From the UHGV virus genome UHGV-0025829: a stretch of 39,837 bases of DNA; one strand, given 5' to 3'. Shown one piece after another: positions 5,495 to 37,280 of the stretch. The translations under genes were made by a program, and so were the position numbers. Source of the DNA: a virus. The notes under the pieces were generated by a model. That model was not told where the DNA came from. It made no database searches and saw only the letters and a program-made list of their open reading frames with translations. The stretch's first letter is position 1, and every line of letters starts with the position of its first letter.

Positions 5495-5790
5495 GCCGCG
5501 TCCCTCTGCCCATCAAGCTGATCAGCCAGATCCCAGCGGGCGATAATTGCCATTGCCTCGCGCCGGTAGGCATCCATTAGTTCTTCGAACTCAGGGCTGT
5601 CTTTAGCGGCCTCCAGTACTTCCTGGCGAACGCCTTTAACTGTTACAACGTCGAAAGTTGATGCCAGTTGATGAAGCCGGATACTCTCAATCAGTTCGAC
5701 TTGTCGGTCATATAGCTGTTCTGACAGGCGGTAGTCCTTGTCGAATTCCAGCATGATTTTTTGAAGATTTTTCTGCTGATTAACGTTCAT
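5491..5790 (-). CDS. Hypothetical early protein
   Basis: 99 aa from ATG 5790 with GGGAGGG SD; coupled to the downstream gene. Confidence 0.5.
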   Translation of the reverse strand: MNVNQQKNLQKIMLEFDKDYRLSEQLYDRQVELIESIRLHQLASTFDVVTVKGVRQEVLEAAKDSPEFEELMDAYRREAMAIIARWDLADQLDGQRDAA

Positions 5791-5807
5791 TATCAGCCCT
5801 CCCATAT

Positions 5808-5945
5808 CTAGTTATCGTTGGCCACATCGCGAGCTTCTTTGCTGACGAAAGCCCACTTAATGCCTTCCTGTAAGGTGCGGAACTTCCAGCTCATGAATCC
5901 GCATGCAGTAACGCAGTACCAACCGTTGATGATTTTCCACTGCAT
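5808..5945 (-). CDS. Small Cys/Trp-rich hypothetical protein (45 aa), first gene of leftward early operon
   Basis: ATG with GAGGT SD; stop overlaps the SD of the next gene; below the 60-aa cutoff of the ORF track. Confidence 0.35.
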   Translation of the reverse strand: MQWKIINGWYCVTACGFMSWKFRTLQEGIKWAFVSKEARDVANDN

Positions 5946-6026
5946 AACTTGTTACCTCGGTCTGTTACCGTTGAGGTAATGATTATGCGTATTTGGTTTG
6001 GTGTCAATAGATATGAGTTAAAAAAA

Positions 6027-6041
6027 TTACCCTTAAGGTAA
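6027..6041. promoter_or_regulatory. Operator palindrome TTACCCTTAAGGTAA (left operator candidate)
   Basis: Perfect TTACC/GGTAA inverted repeat in the leader of the leftward early operon. Confidence 0.6.
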
Positions 6042-6098: not shown

Positions 6099-6683
6099 TT
6101 ATTGTTTGTTTTTTTCGTTCTGGTTGATGACAAATTCAATGTAACTTTCGATCTTTGCTTTCTCGGTTTCGGGTAACAATGCGTAGCGCGAGCGGTCATA
6201 GTTGATGGTCGCAGGGTCGTGCGGGTGAATCAGTAATTCATAGCCGTGACGCCCGAATGCGGATGCAACATTCTCCAGGGTGGAAATGGAAACGCTGACC
6301 TCATTGTTTAACAGGCGGCTGATTGTCACCTGGGCGACGCCGGATGCGCGGTGAAGTTTTCCCTGTGTTGAAAGGTCGCGGCTTTCGCTCATCCAGCGTT
6401 CCAGGTTGTGAGCCGCCAGCTGACCTATATCGCTCGGGCCGACAGGCTGAAAACCTTCCTGAGAAAGCGAGCGATCGATATCAAGCCAGTTACGGGGTTT
6501 ATTGGCGGCAGCTTCAATTTTTCGCGCAACCTGGTCGCCGATAACCTTCTTGCCAAGAGCCCAGCGGTTTACCAGATTTGCCTGAGTTCCAAGTTTTTCT
6601 GCCATCCGCGTCTGAACACCATTGAATTCACGGTCGATCAAGTCGTTGAGATTTTGCCTGCGGACGTCCTGGATACTTTTCAT
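6099..6683 (-). CDS. Immunity repressor (CI-like), two HTH domains, no recognisable S24 peptidase domain
   Basis: Divergent from the Cro-like gene with operators between; HTH segments MAEKLGTQANLVNRWALG and ASGVAQVTISRLLNNEVSVSISTL; no Ser-Lys autocleavage motifs seen. Confidence 0.7.
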   Translation of the reverse strand: MKSIQDVRRQNLNDLIDREFNGVQTRMAEKLGTQANLVNRWALGKKVIGDQVARKIEAAANKPRNWLDIDRSLSQEGFQPVGPSDIGQLAAHNLERWMSESRDLSTQGKLHRASGVAQVTISRLLNNEVSVSISTLENVASAFGRHGYELLIHPHDPATINYDRSRYALLPETEKAKIESYIEFVINQNEKNKQ

Positions 6684-6738: not shown

Positions 6739-6801
6739 TTACCCAACAGGTAAATGCACCCCATAGGTAACTATCCTTGATTTTTGTTACCTTATGGGTG
6801 A
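6739..6801. promoter_or_regulatory. Right operator cluster: three sites (6739..6753 perfect, 6756..6770 and 6787..6801 half-degenerate) in the divergent promoter region
   Basis: TTACCCAACAGGTAA, GCACCCCATAGGTAA and TTACCTTATGGGTGA between repressor start and Cro-like start. Confidence 0.65.
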
Positions 6802-14677: not shown

Positions 14678-14875
14678 AATCTCACCTTAAAAAAATGCCC
14701 GGCGAACCGGGCGAACTGGAAGCAATGAGTTATGCCTTCCGTGGCTGTACTGGTTTACAGCATGAAGTCATCGCAATGGCGTCCTGCTGTAAAAAGGGCG
14801 GTGATAGTCCTTCAAGGGAAACCATCACCGCCAAGCCCCTGGAACTTCTGGCATCACGGTCCTTAGGCGTGATTC

Positions 14876-14952
14876 TGGCGTGGCATGCAGGATTCGAACC
14901 TGCGACCAACCGCTTAGAAGGCGGTTGCTCTGTCCAACTGAGCTAATGCCAC
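14876..14952 (-). tRNA. tRNA-Arg (anticodon UCU)
   Basis: Reverse complement folds as a cloverleaf: acceptor GTGGCAT/ATGCCAC, anticodon loop CTTCTAA, T-loop GGTTCGAATCC, 3-prime GCCA. Confidence 0.85.
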
Positions 14953-19272: not shown

Positions 19273-19323
19273 CGCCTGTTATTAACCTGTGGGTCGTAAC
19301 AGACCCACTAATGGAGAAAGAAG

Positions 19324-31668: not shown

Positions 31669-32082
31669 ATGAAGGAATTATTGCTGTTATCGGTATTTTT
31701 GATATCCGCTTGCTCGACATCCTATGATGTTTATGACGGTGTTGATAAGGCATATTGCGACAAAGTTAAAATGGATTTTTCTCTTGCCAAGACGGCGAAG
31801 GATAGTTGTATTGATCACTACGTCAAGACTTATACCAAGCCAGCCTCATCGGCATCTGATATTGCTGAAGGTGCTGTGTTTGAGTGTAACAAGGTGATAT
31901 CCATCGCAGCGAGTTCTTCATACGATGCTGCTGTATGTGCAATGGCTGAAAGAAACGGCATGTCAGTGCAAAAAATTAATAGCATGATAAGCAGTAATGA
32001 CGAAGCCAAAATAAGAACTGATATCAGCTCGGTGAAAAAAGATGCCATGAACAGAGTTGTAAAATATCAGTCATCTTTATAA
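31669..32082 (+). CDS. Lipoprotein (candidate superinfection-exclusion / moron)
   Basis: Signal peptide MKELLLLSVFLISAC with lipobox; six Cys in the mature part. Confidence 0.6.
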   Translation: MKELLLLSVFLISACSTSYDVYDGVDKAYCDKVKMDFSLAKTAKDSCIDHYVKTYTKPASSASDIAEGAVFECNKVISIAASSSYDAAVCAMAERNGMSVQKINSMISSNDEAKIRTDISSVKKDAMNRVVKYQSSL

Positions 32083-32085
32083 GTC

Positions 32086-32097
32086 GTGACATGTCAC
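32086..32097. repeat. 12-bp perfect palindrome GTGACATGTCAC (copy 3 of 3)
   Basis: Exact match 4 bp after the lipoprotein stop and directly before the terminator. Confidence 0.7.
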
Positions 32098-32098
32098 A

Positions 32099-32122
32099 GG
32101 CCGCTTTCGCGGCCTTGTTTTT
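32099..32122 (+). terminator. Rho-independent terminator ending the late virion operon
   Basis: GGCCGC-TTTC-GCGGCC followed by TTGTTTTT. Confidence 0.7.
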
Positions 32123-32282
32123 AACGAATGCCACCGCCGCCCGGGCGGGAATCCGCAGAACGCCCACCGCAGCGGGAGCCGTCAGCGGCAGTATCGCTGT
32201 CGTGCTGACAACGACCGGCAAAGGCCTGAGTTGAAGCTACCAGAGACAACAAAACGAACAGTGCAGCAAATGCTTTTTTCAT
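32121..32282 (-). CDS. Candidate small secreted peptide (53 aa)
   Basis: Signal peptide MKKAFAALFVLLSLVASTQAFA; sigma70-like promoter TTGACG-17-ATAGAT upstream; weak SD; part of a longer spurious ORF in the track. Confidence 0.3.
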   Translation of the reverse strand: MKKAFAALFVLLSLVASTQAFAGRCQHDSDTAADGSRCGGRSADSRPGGGGIR

Positions 32283-32353
32283 TGTGAAATTTCCATCTAT
32301 AAGCCACCTCAATGTGGCGTCAATGAGTGTTAGCACTGACTTTTGTTTCGTCC

Positions 32354-32376
32354 ACAAAAAATCCCGCAGCGCGGGC
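32354..32376 (-). terminator. Rho-independent terminator after the AT-rich cassette
   Basis: CCCGC-AGC-GCGGG hairpin followed by T-run on the minus strand, directly after the stop at 32377. Confidence 0.55.
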
Positions 32377-32817
32377 TTATTCTTCTTCATCATTAAAAAG
32401 CGGATTGTTATTTCCATCTGATGAAAGGAAAGGTATGTGTTCTCTTGAAAATCCAACAATGACAATTTCATTATCATTTTTTGCATAATGAATGCATTCA
32501 TTAGAATGCATTCCGCCAGGGTTGAAATTTAAGTTAATGGTATAATTCTTAAATGTGTTTGGATACCATGTTGGCCCACAATGATAATGCCAATAATTCT
32601 CTTGCTCATAATTGTCTGAGCCTGGAATTTTATCATGGTTATCATCAACCCACGAGGGCTTGTTTTTTCCAACAAGCGCCCTTCCATTGGCAACATCCTC
32701 TAAAAACCTTTGTATGATTTTTATTTCATCATCAGTAAGGAAAGGTCCGTCTACAGCGAAAGGGGTGTTGCTTTCCCCATGTAGAAAACTATTAGATATT
32801 CTAATGTTAAACTTCAA
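32377..32817 (-). CDS. Hypothetical protein, AT-rich foreign-looking gene (146 aa)
   Basis: Asn/Ile/Phe-rich, strongly AT-biased codons compared with neighbours; no motif recognised. Confidence 0.55.
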   Translation of the reverse strand: MKFNIRISNSFLHGESNTPFAVDGPFLTDDEIKIIQRFLEDVANGRALVGKNKPSWVDDNHDKIPGSDNYEQENYWHYHCGPTWYPNTFKNYTINLNFNPGGMHSNECIHYAKNDNEIVIVGFSREHIPFLSSDGNNNPLFNDEEE

Positions 32818-32837
32818 GGAAAACTCCTGATGTGCTT

Positions 32838-33005
32838 CTATTTGGAGCGAAATGCCGCCTTGAAGTCGCTAAAAGATGTTCCTGTCTGGTAAACCATATC
32901 CTTGTCGCGCTCTTTGCTTGCGCGACCAAGCATAACTTTTCCAATGACATCCCAGCATTGCTTGGCTTGTTCATTGTGCTGAGTACGATTTTTCAACGCT
33001 GTCAT
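32838..33005 (-). CDS. Small hypothetical protein (55 aa) upstream of the AT-rich gene
   Basis: ATG 7 nt after AGGAGG SD; stop 20 bp before the next start; below the ORF-track cutoff. Confidence 0.45.
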   Translation of the reverse strand: MTALKNRTQHNEQAKQCWDVIGKVMLGRASKERDKDMVYQTGTSFSDFKAAFRSK

Positions 33006-33017
33006 ATCGCGCCTCCT

Positions 33018-33032
33018 TTACCTTTAAGGTAA
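33018..33032. promoter_or_regulatory. Operator palindrome TTACCTTTAAGGTAA
   Basis: Perfect motif copy abutting the SD of the 33005 gene. Confidence 0.55.
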
Positions 33033-33098
33033 TATTACGCGAATCTACATCACATCGCCAATGATTATTTTAAAGGCACATCCCTGTGCCGCCGCCCA

Positions 33099-33810
33099 TC
33101 AGAAGAACCCAGCTTTGTCGTTGATGTACTCCGCGTGCGTCTGGATATCACGCAGGCATTTACTCACACCAACGATGTAGCAGAACATGGTGGTCAGTTC
33201 CGCCGCCGCGCCCGATACATCATGCCCGTCGTCCTGCAACTGATTCAGCAGATTCATCAGCAATGAGTTCTCCGTCAGGCCGAGAACACCAGACGGTGAA
33301 TGAATCAGACTGCGGTAGCCTGGCTTCAGTGGGGCACTGTAGGTTTTGTTCTCTATCTTCATTGCCTGTATTACTGCTGACGCCGTGGCGTTGGCTACCT
33401 GGTCGGCAACCATCTTTATGCGTTCTTCCTGCGGGAGCGAGTTTTTAATGTAACTTCCGGTGCGGCGGATCTGAGGAAGAACCTCACCTGTAACCCATTT
33501 ACGAAAGCGGTAGGGGATAGTGCCTGGTGTCACCGCATCGCGGCAGCGGAGGATCAGTGTGTAGAGGCCTGACTCGGAGATGATGTTGATCTCTTTTACT
33601 CGGCTGTCAAAAATTGCACGATGTTCATGCCCTATGTTGAACATAGACCTTTCATCATCATCCAGTTTTTCAAGTGATTGGGTGACGTTTTGGATACGCA
33701 GCGCACTACAAACGTCTTGGGCTACAAACCATGGTTGGCCATCGATAATGATGGAACGGATAGGGTTAACAGATTCAAATTTGAAGATGGCAGTTTGAGC
33801 ATTAGCCATG
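33099..33810 (-). CDS. Antirepressor (Bro-N / Ant-like N-terminal domain plus C-terminal domain)
   Basis: FKFESVNPIRSIIIDGQPWFVAQDVCSALRIQNVTQSLEKLDDDE matches the Bro-N fold pattern; ATG at 33810 with GGAGAT SD; C-terminus paralogous to the 34125..34382 product. Confidence 0.7.
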
Positions 33811-33827
33811 GTGGTTATCTCCACTTA

Positions 33828-33841
33828 GTGATTTTAATCAC
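33828..33841. promoter_or_regulatory. 14-bp perfect palindrome GTGATTTTAATCAC at the antirepressor promoter/RBS
   Basis: Lies 18 bp upstream of the ant ATG, next to the SD. Confidence 0.5.
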
Positions 33842-33963
33842 CACCGCAACGCCAATTACTGGTGGTGAACTGGACAAGGTTGGCGTACCGGCCTAAGTGG
33901 TACCGGCGTCCTTTCGGACCCCTGCCCAGCCCACCATAATTCGGATATGGCTGTGCTTAACGC

Positions 33964-33988
33964 ATAAAAAAACCACGTCTGGCGTGGT
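33964..33988 (-). terminator. Rho-independent terminator inside the ant upstream region
   Basis: ACCACG-TCTGG-CGTGGT hairpin with T-run on the minus strand. Confidence 0.5.
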
Positions 33989-34078
33989 ATGCGCCACTTA
34001 GTAACTCGGGACGCCAATCCCGGCACTGGATTTTGCCAGTACCCGATTACTATGGCACAAGAGGAGTGCGATGTAAAT

Positions 34079-34093
34079 TTACCTCAAAGGTAA
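34079..34093. promoter_or_regulatory. Operator palindrome TTACCTCAAAGGTAA
   Basis: Perfect motif copy 32 bp downstream of the small antirepressor-paralog gene. Confidence 0.55.
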
Positions 34094-34124
34094 ATATAAG
34101 CACTCCATTTGGTAATTGCAAACC

Positions 34125-34382
34125 TTATCTGGTTTGTTTTCGTAATTGTTCGGCACAATAGTCGAGATGTGTTTGCAGATCCTGCATAGACATCTGTGAG
34201 CTGGTGACGTAGTTAATCAATGCAGTCAGTTCGGCAAGTGGGCCATCGACATTAAATCCATCCTTATCGAGATCCCGGAGTAATTTCATCAAGTGCGATC
34301 CCTCCACCAGTGACCTGACGCCTCCCGGCGTGTGAATCCTTTCGGTAAATCCGTCTTCCAGTGGATAGTGATACTGCTGCAT
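34125..34382 (-). CDS. Small antirepressor-domain protein (paralog of the Ant C-terminal domain), LexA-regulated candidate
   Basis: 85 aa from ATG 34382 with GGAGAA SD; aligns with the Ant C-terminus (HxPxGV...AELT...DxQTH); LexA box just upstream. Confidence 0.6.
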   Translation of the reverse strand: MQQYHYPLEDGFTERIHTPGGVRSLVEGSHLMKLLRDLDKDGFNVDGPLAELTALINYVTSSQMSMQDLQTHLDYCAEQLRKQTR

Positions 34383-34401
34383 CTTATCTTCTCCATGCAA
34401 T

Positions 34402-34421
34402 AACTGTATATTTATACAGTA
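34402..34421. promoter_or_regulatory. LexA (SOS) box AACTGTATATTTATACAGTA
   Basis: CTGT-N8-ACAG with AT-rich centre, close to the E. coli consensus TACTGTATATATATACAGTA. Confidence 0.7.
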
Positions 34422-34458
34422 GCAAATAATTTGTTTGCTATCCAGCACGTTTTGCAAA

Positions 34459-34473
34459 TCACCTGAAAGGTAA
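34459..34473. promoter_or_regulatory. Operator-type palindrome TCACCTGAAAGGTAA
   Basis: One mismatch in the left half; between the LexA box and the tailspike start. Confidence 0.45.
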
Positions 34474-34577
34474 TATCTGTTCGTATTTATGGGTTATCTA
34501 TCCATATGTGGTTTTTCAGGTAATAGAATAACCGGATATGCGGCGCAACGGGTGCTGCGACTATCTGGAGATTTAAC

Positions 34578-37280
34578 ATGACGGTCTCAACCGAAGTTGA
34601 CCACAACGAATACACAGGTAACGGCGTTACGACATCATTTCCTTATACCTTTAGGGTTTTCAATAAATCTGATCTGGTAGTGCAGGTGATTGACCCTGAC
34701 GAGAATATCACTGTGCTGGCTCTTGATACTGATTACACGGTGACGGGGGCTGGAGGATATACTGGCGGGAATGTTGTGCTGATGTCCCCGCTGGCCAACG
34801 GATGGCAGATTTCTATCTCGCGTGACCTTCCAGTTACCCAGGAGACTGACCTACGCAACCAGGGGAAGTTCTTCGCAGAAGTGCATGAAGATGCGTTCGA
34901 CAAGCTGACCATGCTGATCCAGCAGTGCTTCAGCTTTCTCCGACTGGCGCTGCGCAAGCCGTCGTTCATCGCTAACTATTACGACGCGCTCAACAACCGC
35001 ATTCGTAACCTGCGTGACCCGTCACAGGAACAGGATGCGGCCACAAAGAATTATGTTGATGGTCAGATTGTTGACAACACCAATGCATGGAAAGCCGCGG
35101 ACGTCGTTCTTGATAATAAAATTGACAGCAATTTTCGGCGCACTCTTAGGGTTCCTGAGAGCAATATCCAAGTATTGCCTACCATAGATGCAAGAAAGAA
35201 GAAATTATTCGCCTGGGATGATTCAGGAAATCCAATTTCTGTACTTCCTGAATCAGGATCTGCGTCTGATGTTCTTATTGAGTTAGCTTCCAGTTATGGT
35301 TTTAGCCTTATCGGGCAGGCTACGTATTCGCAGATCCGTAATTTCACAGGATCAGGTAACTCAATAATGTGCTGCGGTTGCGAAACACTTCTGGATGGTG
35401 GTCAGGGCATGTTCGATCAGGTTCCTGGTGGGGCAGTTATGACCACTCCAGACGATGGCTGTGTATTTATTCGCGATACTATTGGGCGGTTATGGAAACG
35501 CCGTTATGAGGGAAATGAGATCCTGATGGCATGGGCCGGGGCTAAAAGCCTGAAACAAACTTCGGAACCGCAGGACCCGGCCTTTAGAAAGTGCCTTCAG
35601 GCCGCTGCCTCTTTGTCTGAGTCAGGCTATCCGCAATCTATTATCCGGGGGCTGGACAACGCCACCACATACCTTGCTGAAAAGCACCATATCCGCTGCG
35701 GTAACTTCCCGGAGTACATGGCGTGGAAACTTCCACCTGACGGCGGCGGCCGGCGTTTCGGTATTAAAGGGACGTGGGCTCAGGGGTTAGGTGCCGGTTG
35801 GTTTGTCGTACAGGCTAACCATCCGCTGTTCGATTTCACAATCGATAATACCGGCATTGATTTCAATCTGGATGCGTATACCGATGAAGAAATCAAAGTC
35901 CTCGTCGAAGACAACTATATTTTACGTCTGGAGGCGATGGTAAATGCCCCGGAATTTAATGTTCATGCAGGCAACCACCCGGGGACTGTACTTTACAGCC
36001 TCGGTAAATCTGATTATTCAGCGGTAACCGCACAGTGGCCTGATTTGACTACAGTGCTTCCGTCTATCCAGAACGTGGGCAAAGCGGCGTTTAATATTAA
36101 GCACTGCGGCAGGGATTTCCTGCTGAAGAACTGCGGTGCGGGTATGGGGCATTTCCACTCCGTCTGGACACAGGATAACTCTCAGCCGGGATATATTTAT
36201 TCCTGTTACGACCTGACGTTGACCTATGAGGACTACGTCCCCCATACAGAAGAACGCGGGGGGCTTATTTTCGAAGCGTGCGGGACCCTGTCTCTTGAAA
36301 ATATCCTGACCGGTGCGGGAGGCGTCGGGCATTTATGCATCTGGGACTGTCGAAATGTGACCATCAACAAGCACGTCTCGATATGCGGCGCACCTACCTA
36401 CGCGCAGTCGAACCCGAATCTGTATGCCGTGGAAATCTGTAACTCTGAGCTGGCTGTCTATGGTGTGCATGCCCAGGGCTCTGGCAAGTTTATGCGTATC
36501 GGCTTTAACTCACGCGTGACGTTCTACCACACGACGGCGTGGGACATTGCGCAGATGATTCTGGGTACCAATGACCTGAGTCTACTGAAGTATCGTGGTC
36601 AGCGAGCTGCGGTCCTTAACGACCCTATTAAAGTATTCCTTGAATCTGGATTTGTTCAGTCTGCGAATACTGCAGATAAGGGCTGGCCTTGCCAGCCGCT
36701 GATCGTGTTTGATGAAACAATCGGTGGTGATTTCCAGCTGTTGTTCAACCTCGAGGCAAATAATAACCACTCAGGATACGATACCCAGCCTGAGGCGTTA
36801 CTTGCGCTGATAGATATTCGATCTACCAGTCCTAATGGCGAGGTTGTCTTGGGTGAGCAGTCAAAACTGGAAGGTAATACGACAAACTACGTTGTGCGGC
36901 TGGCGAATAAAAACCAGCTCAAGGACGTATTTACTCGCAAAACTAACTTTGTTCGCATCCGGTATACGGATGATAACTCACAGTCTTCCTTTGCTTTGAG
37001 GCATGCTAATCACCCACTTCAAGGTACGGTTGTTGGACGTAACGCGTCCTACTCATATCCATATAAGCGTCCTGGCTTGTACAGCGTCAAAATCACTATT
37101 CCATCCGGTGGTGGATCTTTTTCTGTAACGCATAACGGATTCACGATTTATGAACAGGACCAGCCTGGAATTCATCGTGTACTTATTGATCTGAGATTCC
37201 AGGAAACCGTGCAGATCACTATTAACGGTGGCGAAAACGTCACTATGACAAACGCCGAATGGCGATATTATGTGGGGTAG
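34578..37280 (+). CDS. Tailspike / tail fiber with T7 gp17-like N-terminal adaptor domain and beta-helix-type receptor-binding body
   Basis: 900 aa; N-terminus YTGNGVTTSFPYTFRVFNKSDLVV resembles podovirus tail-fiber N-termini; GGAG SD. Confidence 0.75.
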   Translation: MTVSTEVDHNEYTGNGVTTSFPYTFRVFNKSDLVVQVIDPDENITVLALDTDYTVTGAGGYTGGNVVLMSPLANGWQISISRDLPVTQETDLRNQGKFFAEVHEDAFDKLTMLIQQCFSFLRLALRKPSFIANYYDALNNRIRNLRDPSQEQDAATKNYVDGQIVDNTNAWKAADVVLDNKIDSNFRRTLRVPESNIQVLPTIDARKKKLFAWDDSGNPISVLPESGSASDVLIELASSYGFSLIGQATYSQIRNFTGSGNSIMCCGCETLLDGGQGMFDQVPGGAVMTTPDDGCVFIRDTIGRLWKRRYEGNEILMAWAGAKSLKQTSEPQDPAFRKCLQAAASLSESGYPQSIIRGLDNATTYLAEKHHIRCGNFPEYMAWKLPPDGGGRRFGIKGTWAQGLGAGWFVVQANHPLFDFTIDNTGIDFNLDAYTDEEIKVLVEDNYILRLEAMVNAPEFNVHAGNHPGTVLYSLGKSDYSAVTAQWPDLTTVLPSIQNVGKAAFNIKHCGRDFLLKNCGAGMGHFHSVWTQDNSQPGYIYSCYDLTLTYEDYVPHTEERGGLIFEACGTLSLENILTGAGGVGHLCIWDCRNVTINKHVSICGAPTYAQSNPNLYAVEICNSELAVYGVHAQGSGKFMRIGFNSRVTFYHTTAWDIAQMILGTNDLSLLKYRGQRAAVLNDPIKVFLESGFVQSANTADKGWPCQPLIVFDETIGGDFQLLFNLEANNNHSGYDTQPEALLALIDIRSTSPNGEVVLGEQSKLEGNTTNYVVRLANKNQLKDVFTRKTNFVRIRYTDDNSQSSFALRHANHPLQGTVVGRNASYSYPYKRPGLYSVKITIPSGGGSFSVTHNGFTIYEQDQPGIHRVLIDLRFQETVQITINGGENVTMTNAEWRYYVG

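Follow-up and report, generated by a model that had tools for sequence, protein, structure and literature searches.

A predicted SPC32H-type SOS switch and an adjoining isrK-C4-antirepressor cassette in an epsilon15-like Escherichia coli phage

Antirepressor systems of related phages

The lytic switch of Salmonella phage SPC32H, which involves Rep, Ant and LexA, was reportedly described by Kim and Ryu (2013, J Virol 87:11775), and Kim et al. (2016, PNAS 113:E2480) are said to have explained its Rep and Ant structurally (PDB 5D4Z and 5D50). Kim and Ryu reportedly placed the SPC32H antirepressor in a structurally distinct class. The mechanism has been known since 2013 and structurally explained since 2016, and the system is not new. 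Once LexA has cleaved itself, the antirepressor is made and represses the action of the repressor by protein-protein contact (PMC7380047). The SPC32H-type mechanism is also described in PMC9638917 and PMC9986798, the latter assigning both tetramerisation and Ant binding to the C-terminal domain of Rep. Tum of 186, GfoA/GftA of Gifsy and AntC of N15 follow the same logic, in which SOS derepresses a small antirepressor of a non-cleavable repressor (PMC7380047; see also PMC3121763).

The isrK-C4-antirepressor cassette, which forms the second part of the locus described here, is a module already known and widely distributed. Matches to it were found in 241 phage records, among them Stx phages and the immunity region of SfV, and it has been noted in APSE phages together with a Bro-N gene. 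The immI region of P1 and P7 reportedly consists of the c4 antisense RNA, icd and ant (Citron and Schuster, 1990), and that of P22 holds mnt, arc, ant and the sar antisense RNA. The c4 system of P1/P7 immI is also cited in a preprint (bioRxiv 10.1101/2020.03.17.996009). In Gifsy-1, where the stable RNA STnc1160 separates isrK from a downstream antirepressor-like gene, the short IsrK activates translation of that gene in trans (Hershko-Shalev et al. 2016, PMC4825925).

The only experimental study of a near-identical E. coli phage is that of vB_EcoP_ZX5 (PMC9782041). Overexpression of the ZX5 repressor blocked lytic growth and abolished free phage, and overexpression of ORF4, a Bro-N protein, cut lysogens from 1e9 to 1e6. 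The ZX5 study treats this Bro-N protein as the anti-repressor and makes no mention of a small Ant, of LexA or of SPC32H.

The DNA analysed here is a virus genome of 39,837 nucleotides (UHGV-0025829; the window). Positions 32800..34600 are 98% identical to Escherichia phage HEMP4, and about 71-74% of this region is 92-94% identical to phiV10, TL-2011b, ZX5 and phiv142-3. Those of these phage records that carry a taxonomy belong to Uetakevirus, the epsilon15-like short-tailed temperate phages, and the window is, judged by these matches, an epsilon15-like (Uetakevirus) E. coli phage. The group includes O-antigen-modifying phages, such as phiV10 of O157:H7, and phages of APEC strains.

The ant/Bro-N locus is flanked by the genes for a large virion protein and for the tailspike (34578..37280) and is encoded on the strand opposite to them (Table 1). 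As in P22 immI, an accessory antirepressor gene presumably stands beside the tailspike gene in a temperate phage with a short tail and is presumably held off by a secondary immunity that includes an antisense RNA; unlike P22, the window presumably has no Mnt/Arc, carries C4/isrK in place of sar, and encodes another antirepressor protein. An SPC32H-type SOS arm combined with an RNA-gated cassette for a second antirepressor very probably explains the locus as a whole.

Table 1. Positions of the repressor, antirepressor, RNA and control elements in the window
Feature	Position	Strand	Remarks
two exact palindromes downstream of rep	5965..6041	.	leftward early promoter region
rep, immunity repressor, SPC32H Rep homologue	6099..6683	-	5D50_A match; HTH only, no S24
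three operator-like palindromes, rep-cro intergenic region	6739..6801	.	at 6739, 6756 and 6787
55-aa ORF	32838..33005	-	phrog_8607
palindrome TTACCTTTAAGGTAA	33018..33032	.	abuts, just upstream, the SD of the 55-aa ORF
Bro-N::AntC antirepressor, 236 aa	33099..33809	-	Pfam Bro-N; Ant-like C-terminus
Bro-N gene leader	33821..33855	-	C4 target sites b2 33855..33849 and a2 33828..33821
C4 antisense RNA	33858..33941	-	Rfam RF01695, 66 bits (gathering score 45), full-length model match
isrK-family sRNA with intrinsic terminator	33966..34042	-	Rfam RF01394, 63.5 bits (gathering score 50)
candidate isrK promoter	34049..34077	-	TTTACA-17-CATAGT; start near 34042, first base of the Rfam isrK match
palindrome TTACCTCAAAGGTAA	34079..34093	.	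head of the isrK-C4-Bro-N cassette; abuts the isrK promoter -35
ant, 85-aa antirepressor, SPC32H Ant orthologue	34125..34382	-	ATG 34382..34380, stop 34125, SD GGAG 34394..34391
LexA (SOS) box AACTGTATATTTATACAGTA	34402..34421	.	18/20 matches to the E. coli consensus
candidate ant promoter	34416..34444	-	-35 TGGATA 34444..34439, 17-nt spacer, -10 TACTGT 34421..34416
palindrome TCACCTGAAAGGTAA	34459..34473	.	upstream of the ant promoter

The small ant gene, its LexA box and the Rep repressor

The 85-aa protein encoded by ant matches chain E of PDB 5D50, the "Anti-repressor protein", in a phmmer search of PDB (E 4e-47, residues 2-84 aligned), and is 88% identical to the annotated SPC32H ant by tblastn. 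Homologues of about 86 aa occur in more than 130 clusters in enterobacterial prophages. Annotation pipelines label the protein "hypothetical protein" (PGAP) or place it in a family of "unknown function" (PHROGs, phrog_450). A Pfam scan of the 85-aa protein returned no family, only a sub-threshold DUF724, and no DinI-like match. The first-pass annotation had likened the logic of the system to that of 186 Tum and the Gifsy antirepressors; the logic is indeed shared and the protein family is not, since no DinI-like domain was detected and no sequence relationship of Ant to Tum, GfoA/GftA or N15 AntC was found.

It had also been noted that the 85-aa protein resembles only the C-terminal part of its Bro-N neighbour, and this paralogy is real: residues 2-75 of the small ORF align with residues 160-233 of the Bro-N ORF (42% identity, E 2e-15). 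What did not survive is the role then given to the small protein, that of a stand-alone C-domain paralog beside a full-length antirepressor, as it is itself the conserved and characterised Ant. The Bro-N fusion, not the small Ant, is the accessory part; it is absent from SPC32H and varies in place, orientation and copy number among relatives.

A different reading of the paralogy would make the 85-aa ORF a decayed duplicate of the 3' end of the Bro-N gene, and the LexA-like palindrome a chance AT-rich inverted repeat. The lack of a Pfam family and the uninformative PGAP and PHROGs labels would suit such a remnant, and the bare 16-mer CTGT-N8-ACAG, of which the window holds three copies against 0.47 expected, was judged not enriched on its own. 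Nevertheless, we rejected the remnant as an extremely improbable explanation: a protein this close to one that is functional and has been crystallised, kept at the same length throughout its many clusters and standing alone in SPC32H, does not look like a decaying fragment, and the longer box motif is unique in the window, absent from shuffles and conserved in relatives.

The window was searched with the 20-mer LexA consensus TACTGTATATATATACAGTA, allowing at most three mismatches, with 100 shuffles as the control. The search gave a single match, with two mismatches, just upstream of ant (core CTGT-N8-ACAG at 34404..34419), and none in the shuffles. Copies of the bare core at 14745 and 19287 were considered as further SOS boxes and set aside; their spacers are rich in GC, the 20-mer search does not recover them, SPC32H lacks a counterpart, and they are regarded as chance matches.

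The box edge is 9 nt upstream of the ant Shine-Dalgarno sequence (SD) GGAG, so any promoter serving that SD must overlap or precede the box. Hexamers picked by eye give a putative promoter whose -10 falls within the box; both the -35 and the -10 are conserved between the window and SPC32H. The hexamers are weak, and a consensus promoter scan called no ant promoter. With the match unique, absent from shuffles and conserved in relatives, the near-consensus LexA box proposed in the first-pass annotation stands, and its proposed overlap with the promoter of the small gene agrees with the position of the putative -10.

Conservation of the box was followed through 54 distinct ant upstream regions of relatives. 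The box keeps a fixed distance to the ant ATG and its N8 spacer varies, while the CTGT and ACAG arms are invariant in 52 of the 54. The two exceptions are a Klebsiella phage with ATGT and the SPC32N mutant. The genomes of SPC32H and SPC32N have just two differences, one of which is a G>T upstream of ant that turns the CTGT of the box into CTTT and is the only change there. According to Kim and Ryu (2013), this box mutation reportedly makes Ant constitutive and SPC32N lytic.

The second protein of the switch, Rep, matches 5D50_A (the "Repressor" chain) over its full length (E 4e-42, residues 1-190), and homologues of Rep and Ant were found in essentially one set of about 35 phage records. Rep is 100% identical to the ORF21 repressor of ZX5. 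Pfam finds HTH_3, HTH_26 and similar families only, and no Peptidase_S24 domain, the mark of a lambda CI/LexA-type repressor, was found in Rep at E <= 0.01; the earlier statement that this repressor has no S24 autocleavage motifs is in accord with the Pfam result. Identity to SPC32H Rep is only 42%, and non-cleavage and Ant binding are therefore transferred to this Rep by homology.

For temperate phages of enterobacteria, the textbook would lead one to expect classical induction, in which RecA would stimulate Rep to cleave itself and the small ORF would play no part. Here it is very improbable. Rep has no S24 peptidase domain and belongs to the SPC32H Rep family, described as inactivated by Ant, and the LexA box before ant is strictly conserved. 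Induction through a LexA-derepressed antirepressor, rather than through RecA-dependent repressor cleavage, was the central proposal of the first-pass annotation. It is supported by our analysis and is already published for the orthologous SPC32H system, which shares a homologous Rep, a closely similar Ant and the same box position.

A 15-bp palindrome, TTACC-N5-GGTAA, occurs in nine exact copies in the window, where base count alone predicts about 0.04, and in six near-matches. All 15 sites are intergenic and they mark about nine intergenic regions, including those preceding terminase and portal. Judged by its distribution, the palindrome is probably the Rep operator. Three copies frame the two antirepressor genes. 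The copy that precedes the LexA box by about 38 bp is conserved in all relatives, SPC32H among them. The copy that heads the isrK-C4-Bro-N cassette is present in each cassette taken from a phage with a Rep homologue, whereas the cassette match in Stx and other phages does not extend to it. The motif recurs in SPC32H in the same places, with three copies in the equivalent rep-cro region.

The ant locus is the E. coli counterpart of the SPC32H switch, in the same phage genus. The two phages share a full-length Rep homologue without S24, a closely similar Ant, the same distance from box to ant start, an ant gene at the corresponding place in the genome (immediately before the tailspike gene and pointing away from it), and the palindrome, which occurs upstream of ant as well as between rep and cro. 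They differ in the modest identity of Rep and in about 2 kb of extra DNA in the window; these 2 kb, lacking in SPC32H, carry the isrK-C4-Bro-N::AntC cassette and three small ORFs.

Judged by its sequence, the locus forms the SOS-sensing arm of a lysis-lysogeny switch of the SPC32H type. In the lysogen, Rep would shut the early promoters, most likely via the TTACC-N5-GGTAA operators, and host LexA bound to its box would block the ant promoter. DNA damage would activate RecA and lead LexA to cleave itself, so that Ant would be made. Ant is then expected to bind the Rep C-terminal domain and break up the DNA-binding tetramer, inducing the prophage and leaving Rep uncleaved. LexA binding, Ant-Rep binding and the non-cleavage of Rep are predicted from the SPC32H orthologues.

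The isrK-C4-Bro-N cassette

The two antirepressor genes are separated by 315 bp, in which Rfam places two RNA genes on the same strand, an isrK-family sRNA and a C4 antisense RNA. The first-pass annotation had presented the Bro-N gene as the neighbour of the small gene; it is more than a neighbour under the SOS box, as it has its own candidate promoter and these two regulatory RNAs. Neither RNA appeared in that reading of the region, nor did any promoter or RNA control belonging to the Bro-N gene itself. The isrK and C4 pair also scores above the Rfam gathering thresholds in phiV10, ZX5 and a Klebsiella phage, and Rfam finds neither isrK nor C4 at the SPC32H locus.

The isrK gene ends in a canonical intrinsic terminator (stem 33988..33972 followed by a U-run), and 61 of the 62 cassette sequences that were aligned keep the hexamers of its candidate promoter unchanged. 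The C4 RNA folds into an outer stem around two hairpins. Its a' segment, CCACUUAG (33900..33893), lies in the loop of hairpin 2, and its b' segment, ACGCCAA (33886..33880), lies in the unpaired stretch that follows this hairpin. The complements, UUGGCGU and then CUAAGUGG, occur twice in the same order: inside isrK, as b1 (34017..34011) and a1 (34001..33994), and in the Bro-N leader, as b2 and a2. The a2 site overlaps the SD that serves the ATG at 33809; this SD, GGAG, falls within CUAAGUGGAG.

To follow these sites among relatives, 78 related loci were collected, from which 62 distinct cassette sequences were aligned, representing 18 haplotypes. The a site has four alleles and the b site three. 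In 17 of the 18 haplotypes the segment in C4 co-varies with its copies in isrK and in the leader; two substitutions give G-U pairs, and the single exception is a recombinant. C4 is thus complementary to isrK and to the leader, with three-way covariation. Duplex energies computed on whole RNAs, for C4 paired with the leader or with isrK, did not clearly beat shuffles (11 and 37 of 500), and because these energies are unconvincing the RNA model rests on the covariation.

The small RNAs appear to keep the larger antirepressor copy silent. C4, by means of a' and b', would pair with the ribosome-binding region that precedes the Bro-N gene and would block translation, and isrK, with its copies of the C4 targets, is most likely a decoy that sets the level of free C4.

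This arrangement is close to P1/P7 immI in several respects. A C4-family RNA has accessible a' and b' segments complementary both to an upstream pair of sites and to a pair in a ribosome-binding region, alternative specificities co-vary, and a putative repressor operator lies at the cassette promoter. It differs in that no equivalent of icd or orf45 was found between isrK and the Bro-N gene, where there is only a 14-codon ORF starting at AUG 33937, and the site covers the SD of the antirepressor itself. The antirepressor is also not P1 Ant; it consists of Bro-N and an SPC32H-type Ant domain.

The Gifsy-1 isrK-orf45-anrP region is similar in its order, with a terminator-bearing isrK sRNA first, then a stable RNA region and then an antirepressor-like gene. 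In contrast to Gifsy-1, the module in the window stands directly behind a LexA-controlled ant. The 14-codon ORF, which starts at the AUG equivalent to that of Gifsy-1, ends inside the C4 loop, 85 nt before the Bro-N start, so that coupling of the orf45 type is impossible. The stretch from C4 to the ATG at 33809 holds no ORF.

In the protein encoded behind this leader, Bro-N::AntC, Pfam places a Bro-N domain at residues 18-113, and an Ant-like domain occupies residues about 155-231 (33117..33347). Its C-terminus matches both 5D50_E (E 2e-13) and the Ant family phrog_450 (E 7e-36). Compared with ZX5 ORF4, it is 80% identical overall and near-identical from about residue 75 on. Among 57 distinct cassette proteins there are five N-terminal types, all with the Ant-like C-terminal domain, a sample gathered by homology to the Bro-N protein and biased towards this result. 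The cassette protein of phiV10 is truncated.

The cassette is independent of ant, being separable from it in relatives and having its own conserved candidate promoter and the isrK terminator. It appears to be driven by this promoter, which abuts a Rep-operator-like site. In roughly a third of the related loci, a 242-aa gene on the opposite strand is inserted between the stop codon of ant and isrK, and several phages carry a second cassette, inverted and with a different RNA specificity.

One repressor and two antirepressors

The main rival to this view is a single LexA-driven operon, in which one promoter would serve ant, isrK, C4 and the Bro-N gene, with Bro-N::AntC as the real inducer and Ant as an accessory (e.g. 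in mixed tetramers). All of the elements lie on the same strand within 1.3 kb, no clear or strong terminator was found between the ant stop and isrK, and overexpression of the ZX5 Bro-N protein promotes lytic growth. However, SPC32H relies on the small Ant alone and has no cassette, and isrK ends in a canonical terminator. The 242-aa gene that splits ant from isrK in relatives, and the inverted second cassettes, also argue against one operon, as do the promoter hexamers that the cassette retains and the targeting of the Bro-N SD by C4. A single operon is unlikely, and some SOS-driven read-through from ant into the cassette may occur.

We return to two separately controlled antirepressors. Bro-N::AntC would be a second antirepressor of the same Rep, by analogy with P1/P7, Gifsy-1 and the ZX5 overexpression, and would probably serve anti-immunity on infection rather than SOS induction.

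It is tempting to go further, and a tentative reading, for which the chances are somewhat short of even, is that one Rep-binding domain has been placed under two orthogonal triggers: the small Ant for SOS, and the RNA-gated fusion as an anti-immunity weapon against related resident prophages. It is about equally tentative that the free Ant answers LexA and DNA damage and the fusion is gated by a three-site switch in which isrK (a1/b1) decoys C4. The accompanying view, that at least four by three exchangeable specificities exist, with up to two or three cassettes per phage, we hold with the same reserve, as a possibility a little less than evenly balanced. If the dual-trigger reading is true, trans-activation by Gifsy-1 IsrK could be recast as titration of a C4-like RNA.

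A tandem of Ant and isrK-C4-Bro-N, with one Rep-binding domain under two controls, was not found in the literature searched. Such a tandem offers a compact natural system in which SOS-driven and RNA-gated antirepression of one repressor can be compared. The main value of the present analysis lies in annotation and in the transfer of knowledge to common E. coli prophages. A recognised SPC32H-type switch predicts how these prophages are induced by DNA-damaging antibiotics. About 10% of complete E. coli genomes (533 of 5,426) carry the region that holds ant and the cassette.

Dispersed palindromes and other short motifs

The 15-bp palindrome TTACC-N5-GGTAA, the probable operator of the repressor Rep, occurs at 15 sites in the window, every one of them intergenic, and is also present at equivalent places in the related Salmonella phage SPC32H. 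Together these sites look like a dispersed repressor regulon extending to the terminase, portal and tailspike regions, a pattern that recalls the scattered C1 operators of P1.

Besides the predicted LexA box of ant, the gene for the 85-aa antirepressor, the window holds two further matches to CTGT-N8-ACAG (14745..14760 and 19287..19302). Both are apparently intergenic and have GC-rich spacers. The one at 14745..14760 precedes a 123-aa minus-strand ORF by 68 bp and is close to a tRNA-Arg gene that SPC32H shares. These matches are probably chance occurrences or hairpin stems.

Features of the window and of related loci (L numbers, own coordinates)
Feature	Location	Strand	Remark
Lipoprotein-like ORF, 137 aa	within 31669..33005	plus	phrog_8691
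Membrane-associated moron	32121..32501		phrog_14503
146-aa ORF	32377..32817		phrog_5954
55-aa ORF	32838..33005		phrog_8607
tRNA-Arg gene	14876..14952	minus	anticodon TCT
Palindrome sites	210, 5965, 6027, 6739, 6756, 6787, 7124, 9070, 9132, 12115, 12133, 15275, 33018, 34079, 34459
242-aa gene	L012 1875..2603	opposite	also in L014, L017, L020 and others
Second cassette	L013 ~5690..5967	opposite orientation	also in L022, L023, L025, L056, L058, L059, L069, L082
phiV10 Bro-N antirepressor	L001 2607..3191		truncated to 194 aa

Variation around ant and the isrK cassette

In the spacer between ant and isrK (34043..34124), a 7-bp inverted repeat, GGAGTGC ... GCACTCC, surrounds the operator-like palindrome. 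This repeat could give a nested hairpin in RNA started at the ant promoter; the predicted hairpin has no U-tract. In about one third of related phages a 242-aa gene has been inserted here, precisely after the ant stop codon and before the operator-like site at the head of the cassette. Its product has a hydrophobic N-terminal segment and a Cys-rich C-terminus.

A second isrK-C4-antirepressor cassette, sharing about 79-87% identity, is present in some relatives; its C4 target alleles (variants of the short sites complementary to the C4 antisense RNA) differ, as does the N-terminal domain of the encoded protein. One such copy, near 2056 on the minus strand of L059, is recombinant, and the b1 site of its isrK has ceased to match the C4 of that cassette. 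The Bro-N antirepressor of phiV10 has lost most of its Ant-like domain, and the 29-aa ORF annotated after its gene suggests a frameshift.

Annotation of Ant and differences from SPC32H

Although characterised, the Ant family is still called "hypothetical protein" in PGAP annotation of E. coli genomes and, as phrog_450, is labelled "unknown function" in PHROGs. The published study of ZX5 likewise passed over the small Ant (PMC9782041).

SPC32H lacks about 1.3 kb of the stretch 31669..33005 of the window, and none of the four ORFs of this region has a Pfam family or known function. The second of the two differences between SPC32H and SPC32N is a C-to-T change at position 20147 of L005/L006, which converts codon 5 of the tailspike gene from Thr to Ile.
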